Notes: a model not told the origin generated them from the letters alone. Positions 11,406 to 32,181 are shown, counted from the first letter of the stretch. The stretch: 40,313 bases of DNA from Clostridia bacterium (GCA_017618795.1 JAFZTO010000025.1:1-40313), one strand, 5' to 3'. Program-made: numbers and translations.

Positions 11406-11431
11406 TTTTCCTGTTAATCTGCCTGAATGTC

Positions 11432-11754: not shown

Positions 11755-11779
11755 AAACCTAATAAGTTCCGCAAAAAAA

Positions 11780-11813
11780 GGCAGCATCCCGAAAGATAAG
11801 ATGCTGCCTTTTT
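11780..11813 (+). terminator. Intrinsic terminator (A-tract upstream makes it potentially bidirectional)
   Basis: GGCAGCATC / GATGCTGCC 9-bp stem with an 11-nt loop, followed by TTTTT. Confidence 0.85.
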
Positions 11814-11828
11814 CATTTCGCAAGGCAT

Positions 11829-11940: not shown

Positions 11941-12064
11941 GATGATCAAGCGTCTCGATGATTGCCATTTTATAGAATGTCCATCATTCTCTTTGACAAC
12001 CGTTATTCAGCATAATAACTTTTTCATTGCGTTCCTTTCAAATTCAAACGAGTATTCATTGTTT

Positions 12065-12349: not shown

Positions 12350-12396
12350 TTTGTTGTCAAGATAGTAATCAATTGGCGAGATGATTTGATATTTCA

Positions 12397-12434
12397 GCGG
12401 AACAAGTATACAACCCGTTCCGCTTTTATTTTTT
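12397..12434 (+). terminator. Orphan intrinsic terminator-like hairpin
   Basis: GCGGAAC / GTTCCGC stem followed by TTTTATTTTTT. No + strand gene ends upstream of it. Confidence 0.5.
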
Positions 12435-12617
12435 CCCCCGCGGTTTTATCCGCGATTGCATTGAATATGTCGTTTAATCGTTTGCCGTTTGCCGGCCCGA
12501 GCGGTTTTCGGTTTTATAAATGAGGTATTACAGTTTCTTTTCTTGTTTACCGATGTCGGGCTCGACAACACGCGACGATATTTTTATCGAGTCGCTCGAC
12601 AAAAAAACGTCAACCGC

Positions 12618-12646
12618 TTGACAAACCGAATGACTTGTGGTATACT
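12618..12646 (+). promoter_or_regulatory. Promoter with extended -10
   Basis: TTGACA, 17-nt spacer ending in TGG, then TATACT. This leaves a leader of about 110 nt before the ATG at 12757. Confidence 0.65.
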
Positions 12647-12756
12647 ATTTGTGAAACCGAATCAGGAGGCAAGTTATTGTTGCTATACCTGTAAACATAG
12701 GCGATTTGATCAACAGAAGAATCGTTGAATCTTCAAGGATTGAGGAATACTGAAAT

Positions 12757-14599: not shown

Positions 14600-14684
14600 T
14601 GGTGCGGGAAACGGGACTTGAACCCGTACGGTGTTTACCACACGCCCCTCAAACGTGCGCGTCTGCCAGTTCCGCCACTCCCGC
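14600..14684 (-). tRNA. tRNA-Leu (anticodon GAG), class II with long variable arm, CCA encoded
   Basis: The reverse strand reads GCGGGAGTGGCGGAACTGGCAGACGCGCACGTTTGAGGGGCGTGTGGTAAACACCGTACGGGTTCAAGTCCCGTTTCCCGCACCA. I folded it by hand. It has a 7-bp acceptor stem, a CACGT/GCGTG anticodon stem and a TTGAGGG loop. It also has an ACGGG/CCCGT T-stem with a TTCAAGT loop. Confidence 0.95.
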
Positions 14685-14907: not shown

Positions 14908-15867
14908 TTATTCACTTGTATACCCGTCAACGCTGGTGATTATGGTCCCGTCAGACATTACCTTCGGTAGAACTCCGTCCCAGGTTTCGTAGAACATGGC
15001 TCTTATGACCTGCTCGGTCAGCGATTCGCTGATGATTTTGTTGGCTTTTGCCTCCGCGTCCGCGCGGATCAGCTTTGCCTCCGCTTCCGCCTGAGCCGAG
15101 ATTTTCAGAGCGTCGGCCTCTGCTTGAGCCTTTTCAACCGCGACCTTTCTGTCGGCCTCCGCCTTTGCTATCGCGGTCTGGTTCTCGATCTCCTGCTTCT
15201 GCTGGTTCTGCTGCGCGACGGATTTCTCCGCTATGGCGCGGTTGTAGCTGTCCTCGAAGTCCATCTGATTGATGACGACCTTGAGAACGCTGACGGTGCC
15301 CTCGCCGTATTTTTCATCCATGGAGGCCGCGAGACGCTCCTTTGCGAGCGGCTCTATCTTTGAACGGAGCGTGACCTCCGCCGCAGAGAGTTCTGTCATG
15401 GCGGATTTTATTGCCGAGGCGACGATGCTCTGCGAAACCAGTTCGGCCGTGTTGGTTACGTTTGCGTATATCCACGCGGACTTGGACGCGCTGATCTGGA
15501 ACGTAACGACAATGTCGGAAGCGTAAACCGGCACCTTTTCGGAGCTTTCACCCCAGACCTGCGCCGGCACGGTCACGTCCTGCTGCTTGTTGTTTACGAG
15601 ATCGATGCTCTGAATGAAAGGTATTTTAAAATTGATGCCCTGCGGGACGCTCTGGTTGGAAATCTGTCCGAAGGTGGAGCGCACGCCGGAATATCCGGTC
15701 GGAATGATGGCAAAGCACTGCCCTCCGAGCAGCACCACGGCGCCGAGTATTATAAGGACTGATCGCAGCCCCTTTTTTGATTCGCTGCCGCGCGATTTGA
15801 TTATCATGGGAATGACGATTCCGGCTACTATGAGAATTATACCGGCAAATGTGAAGATTTCGTTCAT
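14908..15867 (-). CDS. SPFH/Band-7 (prohibitin/stomatin-like) membrane protein
   Basis: N-terminal TM segments, then an SPFH-like core (IPTGYSGVRSTFGQI...FKIPFIQS). An Ala/Glu/Lys-rich coiled coil follows (AKAEADRKVAVEKAQAEADALKISAQAEAEAK). GGAGGA RBS. Confidence 0.85.
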   Translation of the reverse strand: MNEIFTFAGIILIVAGIVIPMIIKSRGSESKKGLRSVLIILGAVVLLGGQCFAIIPTGYSGVRSTFGQISNQSVPQGINFKIPFIQSIDLVNNKQQDVTVPAQVWGESSEKVPVYASDIVVTFQISASKSAWIYANVTNTAELVSQSIVASAIKSAMTELSAAEVTLRSKIEPLAKERLAASMDEKYGEGTVSVLKVVINQMDFEDSYNRAIAEKSVAQQNQQKQEIENQTAIAKAEADRKVAVEKAQAEADALKISAQAEAEAKLIRADAEAKANKIISESLTEQVIRAMFYETWDGVLPKVMSDGTIITSVDGYTSE

Positions 15868-15888
15868 GCTTTTTCCTCCGAAGACCGC

Positions 15889-16527
15889 TCAGCGGTTATT
15901 GAATATATCGTATCCGCAGTTTCCGCAGAAACGCGTGTTCTGAATCGGCGCGCCGCAGTTGGGACAGAAATTCGAGGTTACCCTCGTCTGCCCGCCGTAA
16001 TTACGCGTGTACGGCTGCTGCTGGTAGCCGTACTGTCCGTATGGCCGTCCGGGAGCCGGTCCGTAGGGAGTGCCGGCATAGTTGCGGTAATATCTGCCGT
16101 TCGGGTCGGCGGAAGCGCGGCCCTGCGGGCCGACGTACGGCGTCTGGCTGAACGCGAGGATCATGTGGAATATAAGCGGCAGGAAGATAAGGCCTAGGCA
16201 GTATACCTCTTCCTTCGAGAACGCGACGGAGAGTTTGACATAGTAATAAATGCTTACGATCACGTTTGCTACCGGAATGAACAGAAGCAGCATGTACGCG
16301 CCGTGTCCGGTTGCTATCTCAAACAGAGACCATGTGTTGTAAAAAGGAATCAGCGCGATCCAGCCAGGCTTGCCCGCTTTTTTCAGCAACTTCCAGTTGA
16401 TTACGATCCAGAGCGCCGCGACGGCCAGGGCGATTACACCGATGAAAATAAGTATTCTTGTCAGTATATTCAGATCTTCGATCGACAGATCCGGGCCGTA
16501 GTAATAGAATGGTAGTAATGATCTCAT
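15889..16527 (-). CDS. DUF5684-like membrane protein with Tyr/Gly/Pro/Gln-rich linker and C-terminal zinc ribbon
   Basis: KKAGKPGWIALIPFYNTWSLFEI block. Low-complexity GRPYGQYGYQQQPYTRNYGG linker. C-terminal CPNCG-N8-CGNCG zinc ribbon. The start overlaps the exporter stop (ATGA). Confidence 0.7.
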   Translation of the reverse strand: MRSLLPFYYYGPDLSIEDLNILTRILIFIGVIALAVAALWIVINWKLLKKAGKPGWIALIPFYNTWSLFEIATGHGAYMLLLFIPVANVIVSIYYYVKLSVAFSKEEVYCLGLIFLPLIFHMILAFSQTPYVGPQGRASADPNGRYYRNYAGTPYGPAPGRPYGQYGYQQQPYTRNYGGQTRVTSNFCPNCGAPIQNTRFCGNCGYDIFNNR

Positions 16528-18659: not shown

Positions 18660-18688
18660 TTGAAATATCGGCGGAAACAAGGTATAAT
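18660..18688 (+). promoter_or_regulatory. Promoter of the seven-gene operon
   Basis: TTGAAA, 17-nt spacer, then TATAAT. AGGAG at 18712-18716 precedes the GTG start at 18723. Confidence 0.6.
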
Positions 18689-18722
18689 AATATAGATAAA
18701 GTCTGTCTGACAGGAGATTACC

Positions 18723-19748
18723 GTGTCAAAAAAGTTCGGAGGGGGTATAAGCTCCCTCAAATGCGATTTTAAAAACAGAACGTCAGCCGGAGAGCCGAAA
18801 GGCGATTTTCCGGTCGTTTTTCAGCCTCTTGACAAAAAGTTCGGTGATTATACGGCGGCCGAGCTCAGAGATATTGCCGCCGAAAGGGGCGTTTTGCTGC
18901 CGGAGAGGGAAAAGCAGGCCGAAAGACTTTATATTAATCTGAGCGAGAGCGACATCGGCGTTTGCCTCTGCTCACTGCTGACGCTGACATATCCCGACAG
19001 GATAGTGAAGGGCGCGCTGCTTCTCATGAAGATTTACGGCATAGGCAGGGGCATTTTTGCCGTTCCGAGAAGCTACTACAGAGAAGCGAACCTGATAAAC
19101 GCGGAAATCCGGAAGAACAAACTGCTGTCGATCGTCACGGTTGCGGACAGATATCCGATGTACGACGGCCATACGCTTGTTCTGGCTGCGGCGGGAGTCG
19201 AGATAAACGGCGGCAGAGACCTGTCCACAACGAGTTTTATGACCGCAACGCCGGAGTTGTGCGTCAACCTTTTCGGGGTTCTCGCAATCGGTACGGAACC
19301 TGTAAAATATTTTTCTGTCGGCGGAGATATGCTGAAAAAGGCGGAGCTTATGACCGTAAGCGAAGGCATGACCGCCGAGGACGCCCTCGAGAGATGCGGA
19401 CTCGACAAAAGCGGAGCTCTTGTATGCGGAGGACTTGTCAGGGGACGTATTCTGAACGACGGCGATGCTATACCCCGGAATACGGACGGGCTGCTGTTTT
19501 TGAAGAAAAAGCCTGCCGAAACGCGGGCCTACGATTGCGTGTCCTGCGGTAAATGCGATGGTGTCTGCCCGATGCGTCTTACACCTTCAATGATAAACGA
19601 GATGCTGAACAGGGGAAGGGATCCCAGACGGTTTTCTCCTTCTGCGTGCATAGGCTGCGGGTGCTGCAGCTATATCTGCCCGTGCGGAGAAAAGATATGC
19701 GAGAAGATACAGAGATACAACGCGGAAAAGGAGACGGGCAATGACTGA
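18723..19748 (+). CDS. RnfC-like protein with 2x[4Fe-4S] motifs and a degenerate nucleotide-binding region
   Basis: GTG start. C-terminal CVSCGKCDGVCP and CIGCGCCSYICP ferredoxin motifs. SLBB-like segment (VGGDMLKKAELMTVSEGMTAEDALERCG). GGGISS stands where RnfC has GGAGFPT, and INLSESDIG where RnfC has NgaECEP. The RnfC N-terminal barrel is absent. Confidence 0.65.
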   Translation: MSKKFGGGISSLKCDFKNRTSAGEPKGDFPVVFQPLDKKFGDYTAAELRDIAAERGVLLPEREKQAERLYINLSESDIGVCLCSLLTLTYPDRIVKGALLLMKIYGIGRGIFAVPRSYYREANLINAEIRKNKLLSIVTVADRYPMYDGHTLVLAAAGVEINGGRDLSTTSFMTATPELCVNLFGVLAIGTEPVKYFSVGGDMLKKAELMTVSEGMTAEDALERCGLDKSGALVCGGLVRGRILNDGDAIPRNTDGLLFLKKKPAETRAYDCVSCGKCDGVCPMRLTPSMINEMLNRGRDPRRFSPSACIGCGCCSYICPCGEKICEKIQRYNAEKETGND

Positions 19749-21075
19749 TTTTTCCGATCTTACCCGCGAACTTGAAGAGGAATTCAGGGAAATGAGCGAG
19801 CTGCCGATAGGCAGCAACCTGGCCGAGGGCGAGGCGATCGACGACGAGCAGTTTGACGAAGACGTGCAGCCGGGGGCGGATGAAACAGGCACCGGCAGTA
19901 CGGATGTTGATGAAACCGTTAAGCCCGACGGAGCGGCTGAACAGAATTCCGAGCCGGAGGAAATTGCCGGAAAGGAAGACCTCGCGGACGATAGTGAGCA
20001 CGATGGAACCGAGGTAAAAACCGAAGCGGAGCCCACTGCCGAAAAGGCAAAAAAACGCGGTCCGTTTGCGGTGATAAGGGAGCGTCTGAAGCAGCGTGAC
20101 AGGCTCATATCGACAGAACTCGATATTATGATAGCGCTTCTTCCGCTTGTCGCGTGGGGCGTTTACGCTTACGGGACGCGAGTGCTCGCCGTGGTTCTGA
20201 CCGGAATCCTTTCGGCAATGGTTTCAGACATAATCGGAATAGCGATTTTCAGAAGAAAAATCGAATTCCCGCTTTCAGCGTCTGCGGTGACAGGTACAAT
20301 AATCGCGCTCAGCTGTCCCGCGTCGGTTCCGCTGTGGGCGGTAGCCGCCGCCTCGGCCGGGGCTGTTATAATCGTAAAGAATCTGCTGAACGGTTCGGGG
20401 CTTCTTCCGCTGAATCCGTCGGCGACTGCAGTCGCGCTGCTGTACATTGCAATGCCGGCCGTAATGACGTCAATCCCGCAGTTCGGTTCGCGTGCCGGTT
20501 TTTTCGGAGGCGGATATGACATGGCGCAGACCACCGAGCTTGCGCGGCTTCTCGAGGGCCGGATGCCCGAGACGTCGGTCGGAGCAATGATCGTCGGTCT
20601 CCGCTCGGGCGGGATCGGACACATTTCCGCGGTGCTCATAATCGGAGCGTTCATCTACCTGCTGATGCGCAAAGCCGTGCGCGGAGACGTGATGGCCGGA
20701 TTTCTGATCACGGTGGGAGTGTATTTTTACCTGAACCCGAAGCTGCTTATAGTTTCCGACGTTCTGGCCCTTAAATACGCCCTTTACCAGCTTCTCTGCG
20801 CCGACACCCTGTTTACCGTGGTATTTATAGCCTCCGCTCCGGTGTCGTGCCCGAAGACCTCCAGAGGCAGGCTCGTCGCCGGCGTCGCCGGCGGGCTGGC
20901 CACCGCTCTTGCGCGGGTTTACGTCGGCGGAGAAATATCCGTCGTTCTTGCCGCCCTTGTCATAAGTCTGCTGTCGCGCCCGCTCGATCTGGTGTTCCAG
21001 CCGATGGGCGTGTTTGGCGGCGCAGTCAGAAAACCGAAGAAACAAAAAACTTCCTCAAACGAAAATGAAACTTAA
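19741..21075 (+). CDS. RnfD/NqrB-like polytopic membrane protein with an N-terminal acidic extension of about 110 aa
   Basis: The first ~110 residues are dominated by D/E (EEEFREMSE, DDEQFDEDV, SEPEEIAGKEDLADDSEHD). An RnfD-like core follows (DIMIALLPLVAWGVYAYG, LPLNPSATAVALL). The canonical flavinylation motif (SGAT) reads MAQTT. FMATDxVTSP reads FIASAPVSCP. Confidence 0.65.
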   Translation: MTDFSDLTRELEEEFREMSELPIGSNLAEGEAIDDEQFDEDVQPGADETGTGSTDVDETVKPDGAAEQNSEPEEIAGKEDLADDSEHDGTEVKTEAEPTAEKAKKRGPFAVIRERLKQRDRLISTELDIMIALLPLVAWGVYAYGTRVLAVVLTGILSAMVSDIIGIAIFRRKIEFPLSASAVTGTIIALSCPASVPLWAVAAASAGAVIIVKNLLNGSGLLPLNPSATAVALLYIAMPAVMTSIPQFGSRAGFFGGGYDMAQTTELARLLEGRMPETSVGAMIVGLRSGGIGHISAVLIIGAFIYLLMRKAVRGDVMAGFLITVGVYFYLNPKLLIVSDVLALKYALYQLLCADTLFTVVFIASAPVSCPKTSRGRLVAGVAGGLATALARVYVGGEISVVLAALVISLLSRPLDLVFQPMGVFGGAVRKPKKQKTSSNENET

Positions 21076-22504
21076 AAATAGAATTATCGCGCTCTGTGCT
21101 TGCGTTTTTACGCTGACGTGTTTTGCCGTTCCGGCGCACGGCATAGGCAAGCCGGACGTTAAATATTCGGAATGCGCACTCGTATACTGTATCGAATCAA
21201 ACCAGCGGCTGTATGAATCGAACACCGACAGAGTCATTTATCCTGCCGGTCTCGTAAAGCTCATGACGGCTCTTGTGGCCTCGGAATACGCGCTCGGGCT
21301 TGACGAAGGCTACGGAAGGATATGCACCGTTTCTCCGACCGCATACTATTCAACGGCGGGCAATGACATCAACCTGCAGATCGGCGAACAGATGTCGATG
21401 TACAATCTTCTCGTCGGGGTGCTGCTTGCCGGAGCCAACGACTGCGCCAACGTGCTTGCGGAGGAGGTCGCAGGTTCGATAGACGAGTTTGTCCTCATGA
21501 TGAACGAAAAGGCCGAGTCGCTCGGTATGACCAATACGCATTACACCAATCCGACCGGCCTTCACGACGACGAGATGGTCACAACGGTCGACGACCTGCT
21601 TATTCTCGCTCTTTACGCGAGCGCCGATCAGTACATTTCTGAAATTGCCGCAAAGAAGACCGAGACCATTCCGGCAACCAACCGCGACAACGCGAGGTAT
21701 CTGGGAACCCGTAATTATCTCGTGTCCGACAACGCCGTGTCGGGATATTACTACAGATATGCGACGGGTCTTGCCTGCGGAAGCACGGTGCAGGGCGGCT
21801 ACTGCGTGATTGGCACAGCCAGTCACAACGGGCTTAATTTCATAGCCATTTCCACCGGTGCGCAAAACGTCAAGGTGATAGACCGCGAGCAGGTGCTCGA
21901 GGTCGATGAAAACGGAGATCTTGTTTACGACGACGAAGGCAATCCGGTTATTCTCGTCGAAGAGATATCGCACACTGATTTCAGAGGTCTTACCGACGCA
22001 AAGAACATGCTTTACTGGGCTGACAGCTCGTTCAGGTATATCAAGGCGGTCGACAGATCCACTCCGATATGCGAAATAAAGGTCAGGCTTGCCAAAAACA
22101 CCGACAGAGCGGTCCTTCTCCCCGAATTTCCCATAGAGTTGTTTGTGCCTACCGATGTCGACAGGGTTAACGACATAGTTCTCGACTGGACGCTTGACAG
22201 CGACGTGCTGTACGCTCCCGTCAAGGCGGGAGAGCGCGTCGGAACCGTGCGCGTCACTTATATGGGAGACTTTATTGGCGAGGTGCCGCTCATTGTCAAC
22301 ACTACCATCGAGCAGAGTACGATGCTGGTTATCCTCGACGCCGCGTGGCAGATATGCAAAACTCCGTTTGCGAGGGTAGCGCTGATATCCATTGCGGTTG
22401 CGGTCATCGCTTACATAATCATCAACGCCGTCGAGCGGCAGAAAAAGAAAAACGCCGCCAAGCGCAGGAGGCTGCACTCCACCGACACGAAATATCTGCA
22501 GTAA
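21065..22504 (+). CDS. PBP5/DacB-type D-alanyl-D-alanine carboxypeptidase homolog with substituted catalytic motifs (predicted inactive)
   Basis: Start at the ATG at 21065 gives a signal peptide (MKLKNRIIALCACVFTLTCFAVPAHG). The Peptidase_S11-like core is clear (NTHYTNPTGLHD). However SxxK reads GLVK, SxN reads GAN and KTG reads ACG. A C-terminal TM anchor is followed by KKKNAAKRRR. Confidence 0.75.
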   Translation: MKLKNRIIALCACVFTLTCFAVPAHGIGKPDVKYSECALVYCIESNQRLYESNTDRVIYPAGLVKLMTALVASEYALGLDEGYGRICTVSPTAYYSTAGNDINLQIGEQMSMYNLLVGVLLAGANDCANVLAEEVAGSIDEFVLMMNEKAESLGMTNTHYTNPTGLHDDEMVTTVDDLLILALYASADQYISEIAAKKTETIPATNRDNARYLGTRNYLVSDNAVSGYYYRYATGLACGSTVQGGYCVIGTASHNGLNFIAISTGAQNVKVIDREQVLEVDENGDLVYDDEGNPVILVEEISHTDFRGLTDAKNMLYWADSSFRYIKAVDRSTPICEIKVRLAKNTDRAVLLPEFPIELFVPTDVDRVNDIVLDWTLDSDVLYAPVKAGERVGTVRVTYMGDFIGEVPLIVNTTIEQSTMLVILDAAWQICKTPFARVALISIAVAVIAYIIINAVERQKKKNAAKRRRLHSTDTKYLQ

Positions 22505-22513
22505 AAGGCAGCA

Positions 22514-24673
22514 ATGTACATAAAGTCGATTCACATCACCGCATTTGCGGGAAAACAGAATACCGATATCACACTTGGAAACGGGTTAAACATCATTTCG
22601 GGTGAAAACGAATCCGGCAAAAGTACAATCGCGGAATTTGTCCGCTTTGCGCTTTACGGATTTGCGCGGAAAAGCGATCGCGAACTTTACCAGCCTTTTC
22701 TTTCTCCGCTCTGCGCCGGGTCCGTTACCTTTGCGTGCGAAGACGGAGAATATACCGTCGAGCGCAGCGAAAACGGAGCAAAAAGGCAGGTGAGGGTATC
22801 AAAGGACGGCGTTCCTGTTGAAATGAACTGCGAGCCGGGGGAGTTTCTTCTCGGCATTCCGTCTTCCGAACTGTATGTCTCTACCGTATACGTCGGGCAG
22901 GGAGGCACGGCTCTCAACGGCAAAAGCACGGCCGAAGCGGTGGAAAATCTTCTTTTTACCGGAGATGAAAACGTTTCCGCCGAGAGGGCCCTTTCCAGGC
23001 TTGACGGGCTGAGAAAAGAGCTGATGCCGCAGAAAAACGGCAACGGCGCCGTTCGCGAATGCGAAAGGGAAATTAACAATCTCAACAGTGAAAAATATCA
23101 GGCCGCGGAGGAGGACAGGACGATCAGCGAGCACTACCGCAAGCTTGCGCGCTATTCCGATCTGATCGCGGGTGCTGACGAAAGACTCGAGCGCGCGAGA
23201 GACGACGAGATCACATGGATGATAAAAAAACTCCGTGACGAGGGCGAGAAACTGGCCGAGGAAGGGGAAAAGGCAGATCTTGCGAGAGAACAGCTTGAGC
23301 TTTTCGAATCCAAACACTCCCGAAACGACCGTATGCCCGGGAAAAAGGACAGAGACGAACTGTTTGCGTCATATACCAATCTCGGCAACGAGACCCGCGA
23401 TCTCTACACGGCGAACAGGCGGATCACGGAGATCAGAGGAGAACTTGAAAAAAACGAGCTTGACATAGAAGCGCGTAAAAAAGAGAATCAGCCGAAAATA
23501 GCCGATGCGTATCTGAAAAGGACGATTGCAGGCGTCGGAGCCGTCGTATGCTTTGCCGCGTTCGTTGCATGTCTGGTTGTTACCGTAATAGGCGTAACAT
23601 CGTCGAGCAGGGTCGCATATCTTACCGGCGGAGGTCTGGCGCTGCTGTCGCTTATTACACTTGCCGCGGCTTTTATGTTTATGAAGCATTTCGGGACGCG
23701 GGCAATGGAACTGGAGGACGTAAACGATCTGCGCGATGAACGCCTTCACCTTGAGGACGAGCTGTCCACACGGATAAAGCTCGCGGAGAGCGAAAAAGAA
23801 GAGTTCAGGGAAGCCTGCGCAACGTACAAGGAAAAGGCGGACAAATGGGGACTCAATCCCTGCTTTGCCGTCAGACTGTTCGACGCAATACTTGACGAGT
23901 ATGAAAAACTCAGAACGGAAAGCGCCGAGACAAACAGCGTATATATTAACCACAGGTCTGCTTACGACATGAAAATTGCCGATCCCGATACCGTAAGGGA
24001 TGACGGCAGGGAAATCGACCTGCCGCTGAATTACGACGACGGGACTTTTGCGAAAATCAGGCAGGAGTGTTCGGGTTACGTAAGGGAAATGGAGAAAAGG
24101 TCCTCGGAGGTCCGCGAATCGCTTGCCGGTATACTGAGCCGGCATCGCTCCGCTACCGAGATAGAGGAGAAAATATGCGAGCTTACGCCCAAGTTGGAGG
24201 GCTACAAAAGAAAGTACGATGCCGTTTTAACAGCCATAGAGGGCATAAGAGCCGCGGAGGACGAGATGCGTCAGAGCGTTTTTCCGCGTCTCTCGGAGAG
24301 CGCCGGCGGATATCTTTCGCGGATAACGGCAGCCCGATACGGCTCGGTAGGGGTTGACAACGCACTCGGCATGACATTCACACCCGATGACGGACACGGG
24401 GGCAGAGTCGTGAGGGACGCGAGATACATGAGCGGCGGAACTGCGGACGCCGCGTACGTATGTCTCCGTCTGGCGCTAGCTGAACTGATTTCCGAAAAAA
24501 AACTTCCGGTCATTCTTGACGAGAGCTTGATCCGTCTTGACGACGGACGCATGTCGGACTGCCTTCGTATGCTGTCGGAAACCGGGCGCCAGATACTTGT
24601 GTTTTCTTCATCCGACAGGGAATCAAGGCTTGCCGAAATATCCGGCACTGTTGCGGAAAGAGTGCGCATATGA
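22514..24673 (+). CDS. SMC/SbcC-like AAA ATPase with a central transmembrane hairpin (YhaN-like)
   Basis: N-terminal MYIKSIHITAF...GENESGKST (Walker A). Long coiled-coil-like charged regions. Two hydrophobic helices at about nt 23524-23685. C-terminal MSGGTADAAYV signature and LPVILDESLIRLDD Walker B. Confidence 0.75.
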   Translation: MYIKSIHITAFAGKQNTDITLGNGLNIISGENESGKSTIAEFVRFALYGFARKSDRELYQPFLSPLCAGSVTFACEDGEYTVERSENGAKRQVRVSKDGVPVEMNCEPGEFLLGIPSSELYVSTVYVGQGGTALNGKSTAEAVENLLFTGDENVSAERALSRLDGLRKELMPQKNGNGAVRECEREINNLNSEKYQAAEEDRTISEHYRKLARYSDLIAGADERLERARDDEITWMIKKLRDEGEKLAEEGEKADLAREQLELFESKHSRNDRMPGKKDRDELFASYTNLGNETRDLYTANRRITEIRGELEKNELDIEARKKENQPKIADAYLKRTIAGVGAVVCFAAFVACLVVTVIGVTSSSRVAYLTGGGLALLSLITLAAAFMFMKHFGTRAMELEDVNDLRDERLHLEDELSTRIKLAESEKEEFREACATYKEKADKWGLNPCFAVRLFDAILDEYEKLRTESAETNSVYINHRSAYDMKIADPDTVRDDGREIDLPLNYDDGTFAKIRQECSGYVREMEKRSSEVRESLAGILSRHRSATEIEEKICELTPKLEGYKRKYDAVLTAIEGIRAAEDEMRQSVFPRLSESAGGYLSRITAARYGSVGVDNALGMTFTPDDGHGGRVVRDARYMSGGTADAAYVCLRLALAELISEKKLPVILDESLIRLDDGRMSDCLRMLSETGRQILVFSSSDRESRLAEISGTVAERVRI

Positions 24674-25152
24674 GAAGCTGCGCCGTTTGTTTTACAGGTC
24701 ACAGAATCATTTCCGCGAACGAGCTGAAGCGGCTGAATGGCGTGCTGCCTGTTCTTGTTGAGAAACTGTATTCCGACGGGTACAGGGTGTTCTGTACAGG
24801 CGGTGCCATGGGTTTCGACATGCTAGCCGGCGAGGCCGTCTTAGAATTGAAGAACTCTCATAATGATGTGACGCTTGAAATTTTTCTTCCCTGTCGCGGA
24901 AGCAGTGACCGATGGCCCGCTGATCATAAAAAACGTCAGTCGTCCGTGCTTTCACAGGCTGAAAAGGTGAACGTTCTGTCGGATTACTATTACGACGGAT
25001 GCATGATGGTCAGGAACAGAAAAATGGTTGATTCCTGCGGAATGTGCGTGTCTTATTGCTGCAGACTGTCGGGCGGCGGGACGTTCGGAACGGTCTGCTA
25101 CGCGCTTGAAAAGGGTCTCAGGCTCATAAACATCGGGGAGAGAACAATATGA
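24670..25152 (+). CDS. SLOG-superfamily protein, DUF1273/YpsA-like
   Basis: CFTGHR near the N-terminus. GGAMGFDMLAGEAV Rossmann-like glycine loop. RNRKMVD and GGGT blocks are characteristic of DUF1273 proteins. ATGA overlap with the upstream gene. Confidence 0.75.
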   Translation: MRSCAVCFTGHRIISANELKRLNGVLPVLVEKLYSDGYRVFCTGGAMGFDMLAGEAVLELKNSHNDVTLEIFLPCRGSSDRWPADHKKRQSSVLSQAEKVNVLSDYYYDGCMMVRNRKMVDSCGMCVSYCCRLSGGGTFGTVCYALEKGLRLINIGERTI

Positions 25153-25751
25153 ACAATTTGAAAAGATTACTTTGTCTTGTCTGCGCGCTAGCTGCCGTGC
25201 TGTGGATGGCAGGTTGCGGCAGACTGAAAATAACTGATGAAGAGGCTCTTGAAATTCTGAACGACCTCATTCCGAAGGCCGCAGTGATAAACGATATTTT
25301 TTTCGGCGCCGGTCTGCCCGTCGGCGGAGAAGTACCGGAGTCTGAAAATTCCGAGGCGCTGTATATTCCGGTCAGCCCTGATTCGCCGTATCAGAGCGTA
25401 AAGGCGATAAAGGATGCCGCCGAGCAGGTCTATTCCTCGGGTTATCTCTCTTCCGTCTATGTGTCGATGTTTGAGGGTACGAGCGCGAATGGCGAGGAGG
25501 ACGCCGCTGTTGCGACGATAAGCCCGCGTTACAAGGAAATTGGCGGAGAACTCAGGATAAACGTCGGTTTTCCGTCATACAGCATCCGCAGGATAGAGTC
25601 CGTGCGCTCCGCGCATATAACGGGCAACGCGAGAAAACGTGTTACGGTTACGTGTTCATGCATTATACAGGGCTCAGACCGGGAAACTGAGCTGGTGCTA
25701 TATCTGACGCAGGAAAACGGGCGCTGGCTGCTGCAGAGCCCTTCCTACTGA
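25149..25751 (+). CDS. Lipoprotein of unknown function
   Basis: Lipobox (WMAGC). 200 aa, no recognised motifs. ATGA overlap with the upstream gene. Confidence 0.7.
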   Translation: MNNLKRLLCLVCALAAVLWMAGCGRLKITDEEALEILNDLIPKAAVINDIFFGAGLPVGGEVPESENSEALYIPVSPDSPYQSVKAIKDAAEQVYSSGYLSSVYVSMFEGTSANGEEDAAVATISPRYKEIGGELRINVGFPSYSIRRIESVRSAHITGNARKRVTVTCSCIIQGSDRETELVLYLTQENGRWLLQSPSY

Positions 25752-25752
25752 C

Positions 25753-26898
25753 ATGAAGAACGAAACTTTTGTCGCCGTATGTCTTTTCGGGCTTGAATCG
25801 CTGCTCGGCGGCGAGCTCGACGCGCTCGGATGCCGGAGAACGGAAACCATAGACGGAAGAATATGGTTCGAGGCGCCGATGGAATTTCTCCCGAAAATCA
25901 ATATAGGGTTGCGGTACGCCGAGCGCGTCCTGCTGCAGGTCGGCTCGTTCCCGGTTTCCACATTTTCCGATCTTTTTGACGGGACGTACGGGCTTCCGTG
26001 GAACGAATATATCTATGAGGACGACGCTTTTCCGGTCAGGGGACACAGTATAAAGAGCGCGCTTAAATCCGTGCCCGACTGCCAGAGCATAATAAAAAAA
26101 GCCGTTGCCAAAAAACTCGGTCAGTCATACGGAATGCTGACTCTGCCGGAGAGCGGAACAAAAAAGCAGATCGATTTCTTTATTCTGAAGGACGTCGCCT
26201 ACCTCATGATAGATACTACGGGTGAGCCTCTTCACAAGCGGGGATACAGGTCGGAAGCGACGGAGGCTCCGCTCCGCGAGACGCTCGCGGCGGCGATGGC
26301 GAAAATTGCGCGTCCGAGGGAAGACGTGCTGTTCTGGGATCCCATGTGCGGATCAGGAACGATAGCCGTCGAGGCTGCGATGATTGCAACGGACCGTGCG
26401 CCGGGACTTTACAGGAGCTTTGCTTCGGAAAGCTACGACTGGCTCCGTTTAACCGAATGGACCGAAGCACGCGAAGCGGGCAGAGCCAGAATCAAGAAAT
26501 CCGATATACGCATAAACGCCTCGGATATTTCTCCCGAGGCCGTGAAAACCGCACGCAGAAACATCGAAAGGGCAGGCGTGTCCGGAAACGTTTCATGTTT
26601 TGTCTGCGACGCGCTGAAGATACGCCCGGAAGAGGGGAAAGGAACGATTGTCTGCAATCCGCCGTACGGCGAGAGACTCGCAACACTGAAAGAGGCCGAA
26701 AGGCTTTATAAAGCCATGGGCGCGCATTTTCTAACCTTCGGTACGTGGCACATTTACGTTCTGACGTCTGACGAATGCTTCGAAAGGTGTTTCGGAAGAC
26801 GGGCAGACAAAGTCCGCAAACTTTACAACGGAATGATAAAATGCGGGTATTATCAGTATTTCAGGCATTCCTTATCCGAGAAAAATAATAAAAAATAA
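25753..26898 (+). CDS. THUMP-domain class I SAM-dependent RNA methyltransferase (RlmL N-terminal/YpsC-like)
   Basis: N-terminal THUMP-like region. Methyltransferase motif I DPMCGSGTI and motif IV NPPYGERL. It starts 1 nt after the previous stop. Confidence 0.85.
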   Translation: MKNETFVAVCLFGLESLLGGELDALGCRRTETIDGRIWFEAPMEFLPKINIGLRYAERVLLQVGSFPVSTFSDLFDGTYGLPWNEYIYEDDAFPVRGHSIKSALKSVPDCQSIIKKAVAKKLGQSYGMLTLPESGTKKQIDFFILKDVAYLMIDTTGEPLHKRGYRSEATEAPLRETLAAAMAKIARPREDVLFWDPMCGSGTIAVEAAMIATDRAPGLYRSFASESYDWLRLTEWTEAREAGRARIKKSDIRINASDISPEAVKTARRNIERAGVSGNVSCFVCDALKIRPEEGKGTIVCNPPYGERLATLKEAERLYKAMGAHFLTFGTWHIYVLTSDECFERCFGRRADKVRKLYNGMIKCGYYQYFRHSLSEKNNKK

Positions 26899-26917: not shown

Positions 26918-26946
26918 TTGCACAATCCGGAATTTTATGGTATAAT
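26918..26946 (+). promoter_or_regulatory. Promoter with extended -10 ahead of sepF
   Basis: TTGCAC, 17-nt spacer ending in TGG, then TATAAT. Confidence 0.6.
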
Positions 26947-27029: not shown

Positions 27030-27488
27030 ATGGGCTTCTTAAACAATTTTAAAAATCTGATCAATCCTGATGTAGACGACGACGATTACGTCGATGACGA
27101 CGACTATATTGACGTTGCGGAAGACACTCCCGTTCAAACTGCAAAGCCGCAGCAGGCCACGCAGCGCCCCGGTTTTAATCAGGGCGGCAATCCGTTCGGC
27201 GGTTCGCTTGAGCTGAAGGTGGTAAAACCCGAAAAGTACGACACTGCCACAGCGGAAAAGATTGCCAATCACCTGCTGAACAAGAGGTCTGTGGTTCTAA
27301 ATCTCGAGGCCACGAACAAAGAGTCCGCAAGACGTCTTATAGACTTTTTGTCCGGTGTCGTTTTCTCGATCGGGGGCTACATTCAGAGAGTGGCGACAAA
27401 CACTTTTATCGCCGTTCCGGACAACGTTGACGTGTCCGGCGAGCAACTCGCCGAGGCAAAGAAACAGGACGAGACCGACCTGTTCTGA
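27030..27488 (+). CDS. sepF: Cell division protein SepF
   Basis: Start at the ATG at 27030, after GGAGGA. The C-terminal domain LELKVVKPEKYDTATAEKIANHLLNKRSVVLNLEATNKESARRLIDFLSGVVFSIGG is typical of SepF/DUF552. The acidic N-terminal linker is DDDDYVDDDDYIDV. Confidence 0.9.
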   Translation: MGFLNNFKNLINPDVDDDDYVDDDDYIDVAEDTPVQTAKPQQATQRPGFNQGGNPFGGSLELKVVKPEKYDTATAEKIANHLLNKRSVVLNLEATNKESARRLIDFLSGVVFSIGGYIQRVATNTFIAVPDNVDVSGEQLAEAKKQDETDLF

Positions 27489-27525: not shown

Positions 27526-27665
27526 GTTAAACATGCCTGCCCAAGCTCTGCCCATTCGCAGAGTGCTGCGCAGATGTCTGAAATCGGCATAAGACCGCGG
27601 ATTATTCCGCCTGCCATAACGGACTGTTCGCAGTGCCGCGGCTTTTTATTTTACGGGGGAAAAAG

Positions 27666-27944
27666 ATGGAAAATATATTCAGAATGCTCGGGTATATTGT
27701 CTACTATTTTCTTTTTGCGCTCGGAATCGCGCTCCTTTTGCGAGCCGTGCTGTCGTGGTTTGTTGATGACGAGGACTCGAGAATAATGCGGTTTCTCGAA
27801 CTGATTACCGAGCCTGTAGTCATACTTGTGCGCGGAACGATGGGAAGGCTTTTCGAAAGCATTGCCTCCCCGATTGATATCTCGTATATAATTACGGTCC
27901 TTCTGGTGGAACTTGCCGCCGTGATTGTCAGAAATATAATTTAA
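27666..27944 (+). CDS. yggT: YggT-family membrane protein
   Basis: Start at the ATG at 27666. About 92 aa with two hydrophobic helices. LLRAVLSWF and ITEPV blocks are typical of YggT/YlmG. Confidence 0.85.
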   Translation: MENIFRMLGYIVYYFLFALGIALLLRAVLSWFVDDEDSRIMRFLELITEPVVILVRGTMGRLFESIASPIDISYIITVLLVELAAVIVRNII

Positions 27945-27979: not shown

Positions 27980-28891
27980 ATGCTTGCTCCGCATGAACTG
28001 AAAAACAAGGAATTTACAAAATCGCTCCGAGGCTACAGCACCGAGGAGGTCGACGAGCATATAGCGTTCATTATAGAAAAATATACCGACCTTTACAGGG
28101 AAAACGACGCCCTTGAGAAGAAGCTGAAGCTGACAGAGGCAAGGCTCGATTCCATGAAATCCGAGGAGGATTCCATCCGTTCCGCGCTCGTCAACGCTCA
28201 GAAGGCCAGCAAATCGATAATCGACGAGGCGAACGAACAGGCGGACGTTATAATACGCTCAGCCAAGACTAACTGCGACCGCCTCATATCCGAGATGAAA
28301 AAAAAGGTCGCCGCCGAAGAGGAAAAGCTTGAGATAGTCAGAGCCGAGACAAAGAGCTTCAAGGCGGCGCTGTTTGAGGTTTACGGGCAGCACATTTCCA
28401 TGATAGAGGCGATCGCGCCCGAAATCGAGAGTTCTGAAACAAGCGCGGAGCGCGTCGAAGCGATGACGAAACTGGTTACAGACCGCATAAAGGAGGACCT
28501 TGACAAGCTGCAGTCGTCTACCCTCGGCGGAGTCGCCGCATTCGAGGAAAACAAAGAGACCGACGAAAAGGACGCTGACGTCACCGTCCCCGCCGAGGTT
28601 GTTATTCCCGATAATATTACCGATCCTGTTGTGAACGTAACAGCGGTGCGCGACGACGATCAGATTTCATTTGACGAGATAGCCGAGAAAGACAGCCAGC
28701 GCGAGGAGCAGACCGACGAAAAGGACGAATCTCTCATCGATTCGATACGCCGTATCAACGGCCAGGTGAACAGGAACACGCGAGACGACGACGAGGAGTT
28801 TCTTCGTCTGCTTCGCATGGCGTCCGGAAACGGCGACATGACCTCGACGGAGGCCTTTGAGATGGCATACGACGGGAAAAGAAAGGATTAA
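27980..28891 (+). CDS. divIVA: DivIVA-domain protein
   Basis: N-terminal LAPHELKNKEFTKSLRGYSTEEVDEHI is the canonical DivIVA lipid-binding head. Coiled coils and an acidic tail follow. Confidence 0.9.
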   Translation: MLAPHELKNKEFTKSLRGYSTEEVDEHIAFIIEKYTDLYRENDALEKKLKLTEARLDSMKSEEDSIRSALVNAQKASKSIIDEANEQADVIIRSAKTNCDRLISEMKKKVAAEEEKLEIVRAETKSFKAALFEVYGQHISMIEAIAPEIESSETSAERVEAMTKLVTDRIKEDLDKLQSSTLGGVAAFEENKETDEKDADVTVPAEVVIPDNITDPVVNVTAVRDDDQISFDEIAEKDSQREEQTDEKDESLIDSIRRINGQVNRNTRDDDEEFLRLLRMASGNGDMTSTEAFEMAYDGKRKD

Positions 28892-28906
28892 CCGACAGAC
28901 TGACCT

Positions 28907-31666
28907 ATGGATTACGCAAAAACTTTGAATCTGCCGCGTACGGAATTTCCCATGAGGGCCAACCTTGCCCAGCGTGAGCCGGAAATGCTTGCGCGCTGGA
29001 CCTCGCTTGACCTGTACGTAAAACTTAAAGAGAAAAACGCGGACCGCCCGCTGTTCATCATTCACGACGGACCGCCGTTTTCCAACGGGAAAATCCATAT
29101 GGGGCATGCCATGAACAAGCTCCTGAAGGATTTTATCAACAAATATAAGTCCATGACCGGGTACCTTACTCCTTACGTTCCCGGATGGGACAACCACGGC
29201 ATGCCTATCGAATCGGCTATAATAAAAAAGAACAAGCTTGACCGGAAGAGGATGTCTGTTCCGGAATTCCGTACAGCCTGCCATAAATTCGCGCAGGATT
29301 TCGTCGATATTCAGATGGATCAGTTCAAACGGCTGGGAGTCGTGGGCGACTGGGAGCATCCCTACCTGACGATGGACCCGAAATTCGAGGCAAGAGAGGT
29401 GCTCGTTTTCGGAGAAATGTACCGCAAGGGTTACATATACAAGGGCCTGAAGCCGGTTTACTGGTGCCCGAAGGATGAAACTGCGCTTGCTGAGGCCGAG
29501 ATTGAGTATTCAGACGATCCGTGCACCTCGATTTATGTGAAATTCCGTCTTGAGGACGATAAGGGGAAGTTCGGAACGGACCCTGAAAACACGTTTTTTA
29601 TTATCTGGACAACCACGACATGGACCCTCCCGGGCAACCTTGCAATCGCTGTCCATCCGAGAGAAAGCTACGCCCTTGTCAGGGCGGGACGCGAGAATTA
29701 CATAATTGCCGAGGCGCTCGCCGAAAAGACCATGCGCGCCGGGAACGTCGGGAATTACGAAATTCTGCGCACGTTCAGCGGGTCTGAGCTTGAGTACATG
29801 ACGGCAAGGCATCCGTTCCTTGACCGTCTGTCAGTAATCGTAAACGCCGATTACGTTACCATGGATTCCGGTACCGGCTGCGTGCATACCGCTCCGGGAT
29901 TCGGCGCCGACGACTATATGACCTGCAGAAAGTATAATATAGACATAGTTGTTCCGGTCGACGACAGGGGGTATCAGACATCCGACGCCGGGAAATACGC
30001 CGGAATGTACTATGCCGAATCAAACGACGCAATTCTTGCCGATATGAAGGAAAGCGGTGCGCTGTTCGCCTCCGAGCAGGTCGTGCACTCGTACCCGCAC
30101 TGCTGGAGATGCAAGAGTCCGATCATTTTCAGAGCCACGCCTCAGTGGTTCTGCTCGGTGAAGGCCTTCCGCGACAAAGCAATAGAGGCCTGCCGCGATG
30201 TCGAATGGATTCCCGAATGGGGAGAGGAGCGCATTTCGCAGATGATAAGCGAGCGCGCCGACTGGTGCATTTCGCGTCAGCGTCACTGGGGCCTGCCCAT
30301 ACCCGTGTTCTATTGCTCGGATTGCGGAAAACCGGTCTGCACCGAAGAAACCATAAACAGAATATCCGCCGTGTTCGGAGAAAAGGGCTCAAACGCCTGG
30401 TTTGACGAGGACACGGAAAAGCTGCTTCCTGAGGGTTTTTCATGCCCGTTCTGCGGAGGAAATAAATTCACGAAGGAAACAGACACCCTAGACGGATGGT
30501 TCGATTCAGGATCCACGCACTTCAAGGTACTAGAAGAGGATGGAATGAGCTGGCCGGCCGACCTTTATCTTGAGGGCGCGGACCAGTACCGCGGATGGTT
30601 CCAGTCGTCCATGCTCACCGCCGTCGGTGCCAGGGGGCAGGGCGCTCCGTACCGTCAGGTGCTTACGCACGGCTGGGTCGTCGACGGCGAGGGGAAAGCT
30701 ATGCACAAATCCCTCGGCAATTCGATTGTTCCGGACGACATTGTTCCGAAATACGGCGCAGACCTTGTGCGTCTGTGGGTTGCCTCGTCCGATTATCAGG
30801 CGGACGTGCGCTGCTCTGATAACATATTCAAGCAGCTTTCCGAGGCTTATCGCAAAATCAGAAATACAATAAGGTTTCTGATGGCAAACATAGGCGATGC
30901 CGGGACAGACTTCGATCCGGATCGCGATATGGTAAATGTAGACATACTTCCGGGCATCGACCGCTGGATTCTCGCCAAGCTTAACCGCCTTGTCAGGACC
31001 TGCCGCGATGCCTACGACGCCTACGCTTTCCATATCGTTTACCACGAAGTGAGCGATTTCTGCACCGTCGAGCTTTCGAAACTGTATGCCGACATAACAA
31101 AGGACAGGGTTTACGTCGAAGGCACCGCTTCCGTCGAACGTCGTTCCGTGCAGACCACCATGTACATTGTTCTATCGACCCTGCTTCGTCTCTTTGCGCC
31201 TGTTCTTTCGTACACGACCGACGAGGCGTGGTGCATTATGCCGCATTCCTCTGCGGAGGACGGAAGAAACGTTCTGCTGAACGGTATGCCGTCATACAGG
31301 GAAGATTTCGAATTTGCCGATGAAGACAAATGGGACAGGCTCTTTGAACTCCGCGAGGAGGTCATGAAGGCTCTCGAAACGGCACGCGAAAACAAAAAAA
31401 TCGGCAAATCGCTTGACGCGGACGTCACTATTCACACCGACGCCGAAACGGCTGAATTTCTTTCATCGTTTGGCGCGGAAACGCTGGAGACGGTGTTTAT
31501 TGTGTCCGATGTTGAAACAGTCGCGGACGGAGAAAAATCAATAGATGTTTCATCCGCAAAGGGCGAAAAATGCGTTCGCTGCTGGAAATTCGTAACTGAT
31601 TTCGTGAAAGACGCGGACGGTGACTGCCTGTGCGCGCGTTGCGCGAAAGTCGTGAACGGACAATGA
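28907..31666 (+). CDS. ileS: Isoleucine--tRNA ligase
   Basis: 919 aa. HIGH-type motif PPFSNGKIHMGHAMNK. KMSKS-type GKAMHKSLGN. CP1 editing insertion. C-terminal CVRCW...CARC zinc knuckles. Confidence 0.97.
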   Translation: MDYAKTLNLPRTEFPMRANLAQREPEMLARWTSLDLYVKLKEKNADRPLFIIHDGPPFSNGKIHMGHAMNKLLKDFINKYKSMTGYLTPYVPGWDNHGMPIESAIIKKNKLDRKRMSVPEFRTACHKFAQDFVDIQMDQFKRLGVVGDWEHPYLTMDPKFEAREVLVFGEMYRKGYIYKGLKPVYWCPKDETALAEAEIEYSDDPCTSIYVKFRLEDDKGKFGTDPENTFFIIWTTTTWTLPGNLAIAVHPRESYALVRAGRENYIIAEALAEKTMRAGNVGNYEILRTFSGSELEYMTARHPFLDRLSVIVNADYVTMDSGTGCVHTAPGFGADDYMTCRKYNIDIVVPVDDRGYQTSDAGKYAGMYYAESNDAILADMKESGALFASEQVVHSYPHCWRCKSPIIFRATPQWFCSVKAFRDKAIEACRDVEWIPEWGEERISQMISERADWCISRQRHWGLPIPVFYCSDCGKPVCTEETINRISAVFGEKGSNAWFDEDTEKLLPEGFSCPFCGGNKFTKETDTLDGWFDSGSTHFKVLEEDGMSWPADLYLEGADQYRGWFQSSMLTAVGARGQGAPYRQVLTHGWVVDGEGKAMHKSLGNSIVPDDIVPKYGADLVRLWVASSDYQADVRCSDNIFKQLSEAYRKIRNTIRFLMANIGDAGTDFDPDRDMVNVDILPGIDRWILAKLNRLVRTCRDAYDAYAFHIVYHEVSDFCTVELSKLYADITKDRVYVEGTASVERRSVQTTMYIVLSTLLRLFAPVLSYTTDEAWCIMPHSSAEDGRNVLLNGMPSYREDFEFADEDKWDRLFELREEVMKALETARENKKIGKSLDADVTIHTDAETAEFLSSFGAETLETVFIVSDVETVADGEKSIDVSSAKGEKCVRCWKFVTDFVKDADGDCLCARCAKVVNGQ

Positions 31667-32181
31667 GGCTGATTATCTGGGGAGTCGTCGCCGCGCTCGC
31701 GGTGGTGCTTGATCAGGTTTCCAAATCCATAGTCATCGACAGGCTGATGCCGGTTTCGGAGGCGGAGTTTATCCCCGGTTTCATTGGTTTCCGCTACTGC
31801 GAAAATACAGGGGCCGCGTTCGGAATGATGAAGGGTTTCCGCTGGGTTTTCATTGTTCTCTCGATCGTAGCGATAATCGGTATTATAATATATCTGATTG
31901 CGCGGCGCGGGACGGTGCATCCGCTCACGGGTCTTGCGCTTGCCATGATTGCGGGCGGAGGCATCGGCAATCAGATAGACAGGATTGCAAACGGATACGT
32001 CGTTGATTTCATCGAATTTCAGTTTGTCGATTTTGCCATATTCAACATAGCTGACAGTTTTGTAACGGTCGGCGCGTTGCTTGTGATTATCAGCGTCGTG
32101 TTTTTTGATAAAAATCTTCTTGGTGACGGGGAGAAAAGGAAAAAAGCGGACGTAAGCGACGGACAGGTGAAACCTGACTGA
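31663..32181 (+). CDS. lspA: Lipoprotein signal peptidase (signal peptidase II)
   Basis: Start at the ATG at 31663 (ATGA overlap with the ileS stop). Conserved blocks DQVSK, NTGAAFG, GNQIDR, VVDFI, FNIAD. Confidence 0.93.
   Translation: MRLIIWGVVAALAVVLDQVSKSIVIDRLMPVSEAEFIPGFIGFRYCENTGAAFGMMKGFRWVFIVLSIVAIIGIIIYLIARRGTVHPLTGLALAMIAGGGIGNQIDRIANGYVVDFIEFQFVDFAIFNIADSFVTVGALLVIISVVFFDKNLLGDGEKRKKADVSDGQVKPD

Follow-up and report, generated by a model that had tools for sequence, protein, structure and literature searches.

A compact seven-gene cluster upstream of sepF in a Clostridia bacterium and the recurrent linkage of a YhaN-type ATPase, YpsA and a lipoprotein

The seven-gene cluster and the products of g3 to g7

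A stretch of 40,313 nt from a Clostridia bacterium (GCA_017618795.1, JAFZTO010000025.1:1-40313), referred to here as the window, carries a cluster of seven plus-strand open reading frames, g1 to g7, at positions 18723-26898. The products are an RnfC-derived Fe-S protein, an RnfD-like membrane protein, an inactive relative of PBP5, an SMC/Rad50-like ATPase of the YhaN/SbcE family, a YpsA-family SLOG protein, a lipoprotein and a THUMP RNA methyltransferase. Three of the genes, g4, g5 and g6, recur together in other contigs and are called the triad below. The junctions from g1/g2 to g6/g7 measure -8, -11, +9, -4, -4 and +1 nt. These are exactly the values given in a preliminary description of this DNA, which had also placed every reading frame correctly and whose family and motif calls are all reproduced with minor corrections only. 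The GC content is uniform over the cluster (0.49-0.58), which is genuine, very compact and probably co-transcribed.

A promoter-like site (TTGAAA-17-TATAAT, 18660-18688, plus strand) lies upstream of g1 in the 195-nt gap that separates this gene from a divergent ABC exporter gene. It is sigma-70-like and agrees with the consensus at 11 of 12 positions. Two terminator-like matches fall on the plus strand within the cluster (20483 and 24766), both of them weak. Terminator-like sites number 14 against 13.0 ± 3.2 in shuffled sequences and promoter-like sites 11 against 6.7 ± 2.8, so that there is no clear excess of either. The earlier picture of one promoter and no internal terminators agrees with the strong upstream site and the lack of a convincing internal terminator. 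However, since neither class of signal stands clearly above the shuffles, it is compatible with the sequence and not demonstrated by it.

The cluster ends, as had been described, 20 nt before the promoter of a division locus. A TG-extended promoter-like site (26919-26946, plus strand) starts 20 nt past the g7 stop codon, ahead of sepF (27030-27488), yggT (27633-27944), divIVA (27980-28891) and ileS (28907-31666), all on the plus strand. These genes belong to the clostridial DCW2 cluster, given as ylmE-sepF-ylmG-ylmH-divIVA-ileS by Garcia et al. (PMC8136486). A sequence scan finds no terminator-like site between g7 and sepF, and transcription of the cluster may read through into sepF-yggT-divIVA-ileS.

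The g4 protein (22514-24673, plus strand, 719 aa) matches AAA_23, AAA_27 and SbcC_Walker_B, with the YhaN AAA domain (AAA_27) scoring 29.8 bits against a cut-off of 22. Its ATPase motifs are intact and conserved in the alignment of homologs (Walker A GENESGKST, Q-loop VGQ, signature MSGGT and Walker B ILDES). Long helices at 179-322 and 404-604 enclose two hydrophobic transmembrane helices (about 334-393). In a moderately confident AlphaFold2 model (predicted local distance difference test, pLDDT, of 73) the hydrophobic pair forms a two-helix membrane hairpin at the apex of an antiparallel coiled coil, which agrees with the earlier call of an SMC/YhaN-like ATPase with a transmembrane hairpin. 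A fold search with the model returns Rad50 as the best match and Lamassu LmuB among the matches.

The SbcE (YhaN) protein of B. subtilis is the fourth SMC-like protein of that organism and has a central domain that is unique, hydrophobic and insoluble. Its roles are in the repair of double-strand breaks and in transformation; in competent cells it gathers in foci at the poles, and it binds SbcF (YhaO) (PMC2811018). The g4 protein likewise combines Rad50-like heads, long coiled coils and a hydrophobic apex domain. A metagenome scan retrieved 80 distant relatives of g4, and a gene for a YhaO/SbcF-like metallophosphoesterase lies immediately upstream of the ATPase gene in 43 of the 62 loci with enough upstream DNA. 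This neighbour, consistent with the AAA_27 match, assigns g4 to the YhaN/SbcE family. At 719 aa it is shorter than the B. subtilis protein, which has about 960 aa. It also differs in its surroundings, with no adjacent nuclease gene, YpsA and lipoprotein genes after it and a dead PBP5 gene before it. There is no yhaO homolog in the 40-kb window, and no YhaO/SbcF gene adjoins the ATPase in any of the YpsA-linked loci. Among the distant relatives, 53 loci extend far enough downstream, and YpsA is encoded there in a single one of them (contig L091). By its gene neighbourhood g4 is thus placed in a minority branch of the family in which the adjacent nuclease gene is exchanged for YpsA and a lipoprotein.

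YhaN-family genes have two further neighbours of note. A small HAD/PGP-phosphatase-like gene is found directly upstream of the ATPase gene in L089 (8146-12280) and, just upstream of position 10001, in L102, L116 and L119. The L089 copy has the YhaO-like nuclease gene on one side and the ATPase gene on the other. The family may have a third conserved partner in this gene. In L090 a gene with a DnaD/DnaB_2 domain (8278-9177) directly precedes the g4 homolog.

The g5 protein (24670-25152, plus strand, 160 aa) matches the YpsA family (PF06908) with 53.8 bits against a cut-off of 27.7. It keeps the GxD/E signature of the ligand site, G48-F-D50 aligning with G53-x-E55 of 2NX2, in line with the earlier call of a YpsA-like SLOG protein. 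YpsA is a SLOG protein with a nucleotide-type ligand that protects against oxidative stress and, when overproduced, blocks FtsZ assembly in B. subtilis and S. aureus (PMC6459960). Division inhibition by the B. subtilis protein requires G42, E44, W45 and W87 (PMC6459960), of which the position of G42 is conserved in g5.

The lipoprotein encoded by g6 (25149-25751, plus strand, 200 aa) carries the lipobox MAGC, as had been noted, and belongs to an unnamed family. It gives no Pfam, NCBIfam, PADLOC or PDB-sequence match, even with a five-sequence profile. A weak match to DUF3828 (E=0.15) is no more than a hint of an NTF2-like fold, and the single-sequence AlphaFold model is poor (pLDDT 48). The last gene, g7 (25753-26898, plus strand, 381 aa), gives matches to RlmL_1st, THUMP and UPF0020, all above the Pfam cut-offs, and its residues 3-372 match the N-terminal (RlmL) half of the RlmK/L model (240 bits, 3.2e-71). 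These domains identify it as an RlmL/YpsC-type THUMP S-adenosylmethionine-dependent RNA methyltransferase, a housekeeping enzyme of the family named in the preliminary description.

The g3 protein (21065-22504, plus strand) is an exported relative of PBP5, with matches to Peptidase_S11 (129.7 bits) and PBP5_C (25.1 bits), both above the curated cut-offs. It shares these two domains, the signal peptide and the C-terminal membrane anchor, here a transmembrane helix, with the PBP5/DacA-type S11 DD-carboxypeptidases. In contrast to them it has lost the nucleophilic serine, the serine of SxN and the lysine of KTG, as the three motifs read GLVK (SxxK), GAN (SxN) and ACG (KTG). All three are altered, as had been claimed, but the substitution is not complete because the SxxK lysine and the SxN asparagine remain. 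An ortholog in contig L085 (52% identical), whose gene overlaps the g4 ortholog by 4 nt, is equally dead (ALTK, GAN and ICG). The identical losses at this distance indicate a stable pseudoenzyme and not a product of recent decay; on its motifs g3 is a stably inactivated PBP5. A literature search on dead S11 proteins of this kind found nothing, and a stably inactivated, membrane-anchored PBP5 beside the triad, as seen in two lineages, appears to be undescribed.

Neighbourhood of the ATPase, YpsA and lipoprotein genes

Conservation of the neighbourhood was examined from two anchors, g2 and those homologs of g4 that lie on usable contigs. The complete layout (g2 to g7 followed by sepF-yggT-divIVA-ileS-lspA-rluD) is found only in one close relative, GCA_016648615.1, whose g4 is 86% identical. 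Co-occurrence confined to the strain itself or to close relatives had been named in advance as a refutation of the module, and for the set of seven this is what is seen. The triad behaves differently. YpsA is encoded downstream of g4 in all seven contigs with a g4 at least 31% identical (the window, GCA_016648615.1, L085, L087, L088, L091 and L171), and a homologous lipoprotein gene follows YpsA in five of the seven, the window included. The g6 homologs in L087, L088, L091 and L171 are 36-40% identical and all have lipoboxes. In GCA_016648615.1 the g6 position is occupied by a gene of matching size (197 aa), the sequence of which is unreadable.

The genes around the triad vary. In L085 and L086 (g4 39% identical) the order is PBP5-like gene, ATPase, an inserted type II restriction-modification pair, YpsA and lipoprotein, and neither the Rnf-like pair nor the THUMP gene is present at the locus. 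In L087, L088 and L171 (31-34%) the order is galK, ATPase, YpsA and g6 homolog, with recA-recX after the triad in L087 (13333-14947). In L091 (33%) the triad lies between a gene for a class I (Trp/Tyr-type) tRNA synthetase and an FtsX-like/ABC pair. There are thus four flanking contexts: PBP5-like/THUMP, PBP5-like/aminotransferase with the restriction-modification insertion inside, galK/recA-recX, and tRNA synthetase/FtsX-ABC. The triad loci of L087, L088, L091 and L171 are without g1, g2 and g7 and mostly without g3. A homolog of g7 is not adjacent to the triad in these four contigs or in L085, and adjoins it only in the source genus.

The insertion in L085 (10869-12714) consists of genes for a MethyltransfD12 methyltransferase and an EcoRI-like endonuclease. 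It lies between the g4 ortholog and YpsA and leaves the genes flanking the triad undisrupted.

Adjacency that is kept down to 31% identity, in four contexts and across a restriction-modification insertion, is what commonly marks a functional unit. The same facts bear on the reading that no functional link exists. In that case g4 would be an ordinary SbcE whose YhaO/SbcF partner is encoded at a distance, and its neighbours would be unrelated housekeeping genes held together by the compaction of operons and by common control through growth rate. 'Superoperons' that combine unrelated housekeeping genes are frequent in bacteria, the genes flanking the triad are ordinary ones of this kind, g4 has all the features of the YhaN/SbcE family and most family members pair with YhaO. 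The persistence of the ATPase-YpsA-lipoprotein order speaks against mere compaction, as does the fact that the YpsA-linked ATPases are precisely those without an adjacent yhaO. The absence of any functional link is judged unlikely, although it deserves appreciable weight.

The PADLOC search raises the question of whether g4-g5-g6, perhaps with g7, could be an anti-phage or conflict system of the Lamassu or MADS type, in which an SMC-like sensor ATPase would act with a SLOG signal protein. Here g4 matches LmuB at full length (7.7e-20) and mad3 (2.4e-12), and g7 matches mad2 (8.1e-20). LmuB shares the SMC/Rad50 fold with g4 and is among its fold matches, conflict systems are known to include SLOG domains (Burroughs 2015, as cited in PMC6459960) and a restriction-modification system sits inside the cluster in L085. 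However, these matches reflect a generic likeness of SMC heads and methyltransferases, Rad50 scoring better by structure and RlmK/L fitting g7 far better than mad2. PADLOC has no match for g5, g6, g3 or g1, so the partners of g4 here, YpsA and the lipoprotein, are foreign to it. An effector (nuclease, TIR or Cap4-like) is missing, as are the LmuA effector and LmuC of Lamassu, and g4 has a membrane hairpin. The composition is native, mobility signals are absent and, unlike in mobile defence islands, synteny is kept at low identity in neighbourhoods of core housekeeping genes. A role in defence is highly improbable and was set aside.

YpsA has been described next to gpsB, phosphoribosyltransferase genes, NAD-salvage genes and conflict systems (PMC6459960), and the words 'SMC' and 'ATPase' do not occur in that paper. 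A literature search for YpsA together with YhaN or SbcE found nothing. The recurrent linkage of a YhaN-type ATPase, YpsA and a lipoprotein appears to be undescribed.

A related arrangement is known from Bacilli, where a conserved gpsB-recU-PBP1(pbpA3)-ypsA-dnaD cluster has been read as a link of division, wall synthesis and recombination (PMC8136486). There, too, a YpsA with the GxD/E signature stands beside PBP-family, DNA repair or recombination and DivIVA-family genes (PMC6459960, PMC8136486). The parts differ: the repair gene encodes an SbcE-type ATPase here and RecU in Bacilli, and the PBP is of a dead class-C (S11) type here and PBP1 there. GpsB is absent next to g5, whose neighbours are g4 and the lipoprotein gene, with DivIVA encoded 2.8 kb downstream; the methyltransferase gene is separated from that of YpsA by the gene for the exported lipoprotein. 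In the view of Garcia et al., YpsA was acquired at the root of Bacilli (PMC8136486), whereas the lineage of the window is clostridial. Taken together, the parallel with Bacilli, recA-recX after the triad in L087 and DCW2 after it in the window suggest a link of DNA status at the membrane with division and wall growth.

The methyltransferase may extend the comparison. In B. subtilis ypsA-gpsB is presumably followed by ypsC, a gene for a THUMP methyltransferase like g7; a literature check found no paper that has ypsC and gpsB together.

The RnfC-like and RnfD-like pair

The g1 protein (18723-19748, plus strand, 341 aa) shows a weak Complex1_51K match and two 4Fe-4S motifs in the Pfam/NCBIfam search, which gives no match to RnfC_N, the N-terminal barrel domain. 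In alignment with true RnfC the protein lacks the GGAGFPT loop that binds NADH and FMN, which is deleted, and has SESD in place of ECEP. It retains both CxxCxxCxxxCP motifs (CVSCGKCDGVCP and CIGCGCCSYICP), with cysteines that are invariant in the alignment of RnfC-like proteins. The preliminary account of an RnfC-like protein that keeps its two clusters and has lost both blocks is accurate in each of these points and had missed only the absence of the barrel domain.

The g2 product (19741-21075, plus strand, 444 aa) is a polytopic membrane protein that matches NQR2_RnfD_RnfE with 160 bits. At the N-terminus it is extended by about 115 residues of acidic character (37 D+E against 11 K+R), as had been reported. 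At the canonical [S/T]GA[T/S] flavinylation site it reads AQTT, the glycine and the alanine being missing. The earlier statement that the motif is lacking holds, but a threonine still aligns with the modified position in MAFFT alignments, where the phmmer alignment has a glycine. As aligned, the canonical flavinylation motif is absent, while flavinylation itself is not strictly excluded. A statistic on this site over 150 representatives proved too alignment-dependent and was not used.

An exhaustive search of representatives shows that the relatives of g2 form a distinct group (38 representatives at E<1e-30), many of them with long and variable N-terminal extensions. Two members, P0014 (886 aa) and P0018 (877 aa), are single polypeptides in which an RnfC-like part without RnfC_N is joined to an RnfD-like part. 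In contig L011 a pair like g1-g2 is followed by genes for an MFS transporter and a GH2 glycosidase, and in L084 an RnfC-like/RnfD-like fusion lies amid unrelated small genes. No homologs of the PBP5, SMC, YpsA or THUMP genes are found within reach of the Rnf-like genes in either contig. The NADH/FMN loop is deleted in the same way in the RnfC-like parts from the window, L011 and the L084 fusion, all three of which retain both Fe-S motifs. Because of this shared deletion, the fusions and the occurrence without g3-g7, the g1-g2 pair is, by comparison of loci, a unit of its own that is separate from the rest of the cluster.

Other searches returned little of this type. A word-indexed homolog search with g2 alone or with a 20-sequence profile gave almost nothing beyond close relatives and true RnfD. 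A scan of the genome collection on RnfD-like motifs (from a five-sequence alignment) returned mostly genuine rnfCDGEA operons of Oscillospirales, which shows true Rnf to be a separate type of locus in that clade. L006, L016, L023 and L036 were considered as further degenerate pairs and turned out to be true Rnf, leaving L011 as the only degenerate one among the scan candidates.

Some of these true loci have features of their own. In L008, L010, L012 and L016, from related Oscillospirales metagenome-assembled genomes, a rluD homolog lies directly upstream of rnfC (e.g., L010 7071-9395). Three of the four are full rnfCDGEA loci, and the short contig L016 shows no more than rnfC and rnfD. The rluD gene of the window (32181-33083) is situated about 5 kb downstream of the cluster with the Rnf-like pair. 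The Flintibacter porci contig L023 encodes, inside a true rnf locus, a 555-aa protein (10058-11725) with RnfD and FMN_bind (RnfG-like) domains.

The Rnf complex to which the two proteins are related comprises six subunits, RnfC, RnfD, RnfG, RnfE, RnfA and RnfB. The cluster has only the C-like and D-like ones. Genes for RnfG, RnfE, RnfA and RnfB are in neither the cluster nor the window, and tblastn with RnfG and RnfE gives no match in its 40 kb. In contrast to RnfC, the RnfC-like subunit has lost the NADH/FMN loop and, in the window, the RnfC_N domain, and the true rnfCDGEA operons of related Oscillospirales occupy separate loci. With these parts missing g1-g2 cannot be an Rnf ion pump. The RnfC-like/RnfD-like fusions argue strongly that the two proteins form a physical complex, in which the RnfC-like subunit, deprived of its NADH/FMN site and retaining two 4Fe-4S clusters, would dock on an RnfD-like subunit without the canonical site for covalent flavin. 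The two proteins most likely serve in the membrane as an Fe-S redox or sensing unit. An 'Nqr/Rnf-like' complex of two subunits is reported whose RnfD-like subunit lacks the flavinylated threonine; its partner is RnfG-like and not RnfC-like (bioRxiv 10.1101/2024.03.13.584918). A literature search found no RnfC-like/RnfD-like pair beyond this RnfD-like/RnfG-like complex, and the loop-deleted pair with its fusions appears to be undescribed. Genes of the g1/g2 type carry the name 'electron transport complex subunit C/D' in gut Clostridia, which calls for caution in metabolic annotation.

Reading of the cluster and other features of the window

The preliminary description had taken all seven products for one envelope/division module, co-transcribed and tied to sepF-divIVA, with scaffold roles for the degenerate enzymes. 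The almost gapless packing, in which stop and start codons overlap, the single strong promoter-like site, the many membrane or exported products, the position directly upstream of DCW2 with no terminator between and the preservation of the whole layout in a relative at 86% identity are all what such a module would show. However, the full set is confined to that close relative (GCA_016648615.1), in L011 and L084 the g1-g2 pair stands without the rest, and the triad occurs in L087, L088, L091 and L171 without g1, g2 and g7 and mostly without g3. None of these six contigs has its genes next to sepF or divIVA, and the g7 family is one of RNA methyltransferases with no link to the envelope. A single module of seven parts is very improbable. 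It fails the test of conservation, although g4, g5 and g6 do recur together as a core.

The concatenation of three units in one lineage accounts for these patterns with a somewhat better than even chance of being right. The units would be g1-g2, g3 with the g4-g5-g6 core, and g7, and the core would be a membrane-tethered SbcE-type clamp tied to YpsA, division and the envelope. The claim of an undescribed conserved association thus survives for the triad, which recurs at 31-39% g4 identity in four contexts and is joined by g3 in a second lineage, but not for g1-g2, which are an independent pair. As to the members, all except g6 fall in known families and the seven-gene module as such is unsupported. 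Placement of members in characterized pathways had likewise been named as a refutation, and this is seen in part, with g4 (YhaN/SbcE), g5 (YpsA) and g7 (RlmL-type THUMP) falling in characterized families.

A mechanism can be outlined for the core. In a membrane-tethered dimer of g4 the ATP-engaged heads would clamp DNA against the membrane, much as SbcE of B. subtilis may act at the poles in repair and competence. In this subfamily the usual gene for an Mre11-like nuclease (YhaO/SbcF) is absent from the neighbourhood and a YpsA gene comes after that of the ATPase. YpsA could be a regulatory or output partner that links the DNA or ATP state of the ATPase to division. The g6 lipoprotein and the dead, membrane-anchored PBP5 could be extracytoplasmic partners tying the assembly to peptidoglycan, with g3 as an accessory peptidoglycan-binding partner in some lineages. 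Whereas the anatomy, the family memberships and the patterns of conservation are observed, co-transcription, complexes between the proteins and a coupling of division to the state of the DNA are inferred.

Several points weigh against this reading of the core and its partners. The lipoprotein that follows YpsA in L085 has no detectable homology to g6, and g3 is missing beside the triad in four of the seven contigs. Filamentation by B. subtilis YpsA depends on E44 and W45, and g5 does not conserve the matching positions (R and V by phmmer). Outside the membrane the g4 hairpin exposes a loop of just a few residues, so that contacts with g3 or g6 would have to pass through membrane anchors. The 40 kb of the window contain no yhaO gene, but there could be one in another part of the genome. 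The independent lineages are few (about four to five) and the organism is poorly sampled. For the Rnf-like pair, the sole genome-wide scan returned mainly true rnf operons, and the phyletic spread is thinly sampled.

Through the recurrent gene linkage YpsA, which has no known ligand or partner, and SbcE/YhaN with its unique hydrophobic central domain, two conserved proteins of Gram-positives, each gain a concrete candidate partner. The linkage of the ATPase, YpsA, lipoprotein and dead PBP5 offers a testable hypothesis that would tie DNA handling at the membrane to division or wall synthesis, and it echoes the gpsB-recU-PBP1-ypsA cluster of Bacilli with different parts. A bolder version would make these four proteins a trans-envelope complex of certain Clostridia that senses trapped or broken DNA at the membrane or septum and holds back FtsZ and septal peptidoglycan synthesis. 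The nucleotide ligand of YpsA would be the signal, the Rnf-like pair would add a redox input in the source genus and all of it would share expression with sepF and divIVA. Such a complex would be a clostridial counterpart of nucleoid occlusion or division checkpoints. In this full form the proposal is quite improbable.

Elsewhere in the window, the ileS start lies 15 nt past the divIVA stop (28891-28907). An Rfam search at gathering thresholds shows a T-box leader ahead of neither ileS nor metG (33830-35794), and its only RNA match in the window is one tRNA, a tRNA-Leu(GAG) at 14600-14684 on the minus strand. The region 11400-12750 is gene-poor and lower in GC. It contains a 96-aa glycine-rich membrane open reading frame (11464-11754) and a 94-aa one (12065-12349, minus strand) that represents the C-terminal piece of an ABC ATPase, probably left over from a pseudogene. 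The divergent ABC exporter gene that precedes the cluster forms a tandem array with two minus-strand genes at 14908-16527, one for an SPFH/Band 7 protein and one for a DUF5684/zinc-ribbon membrane protein.

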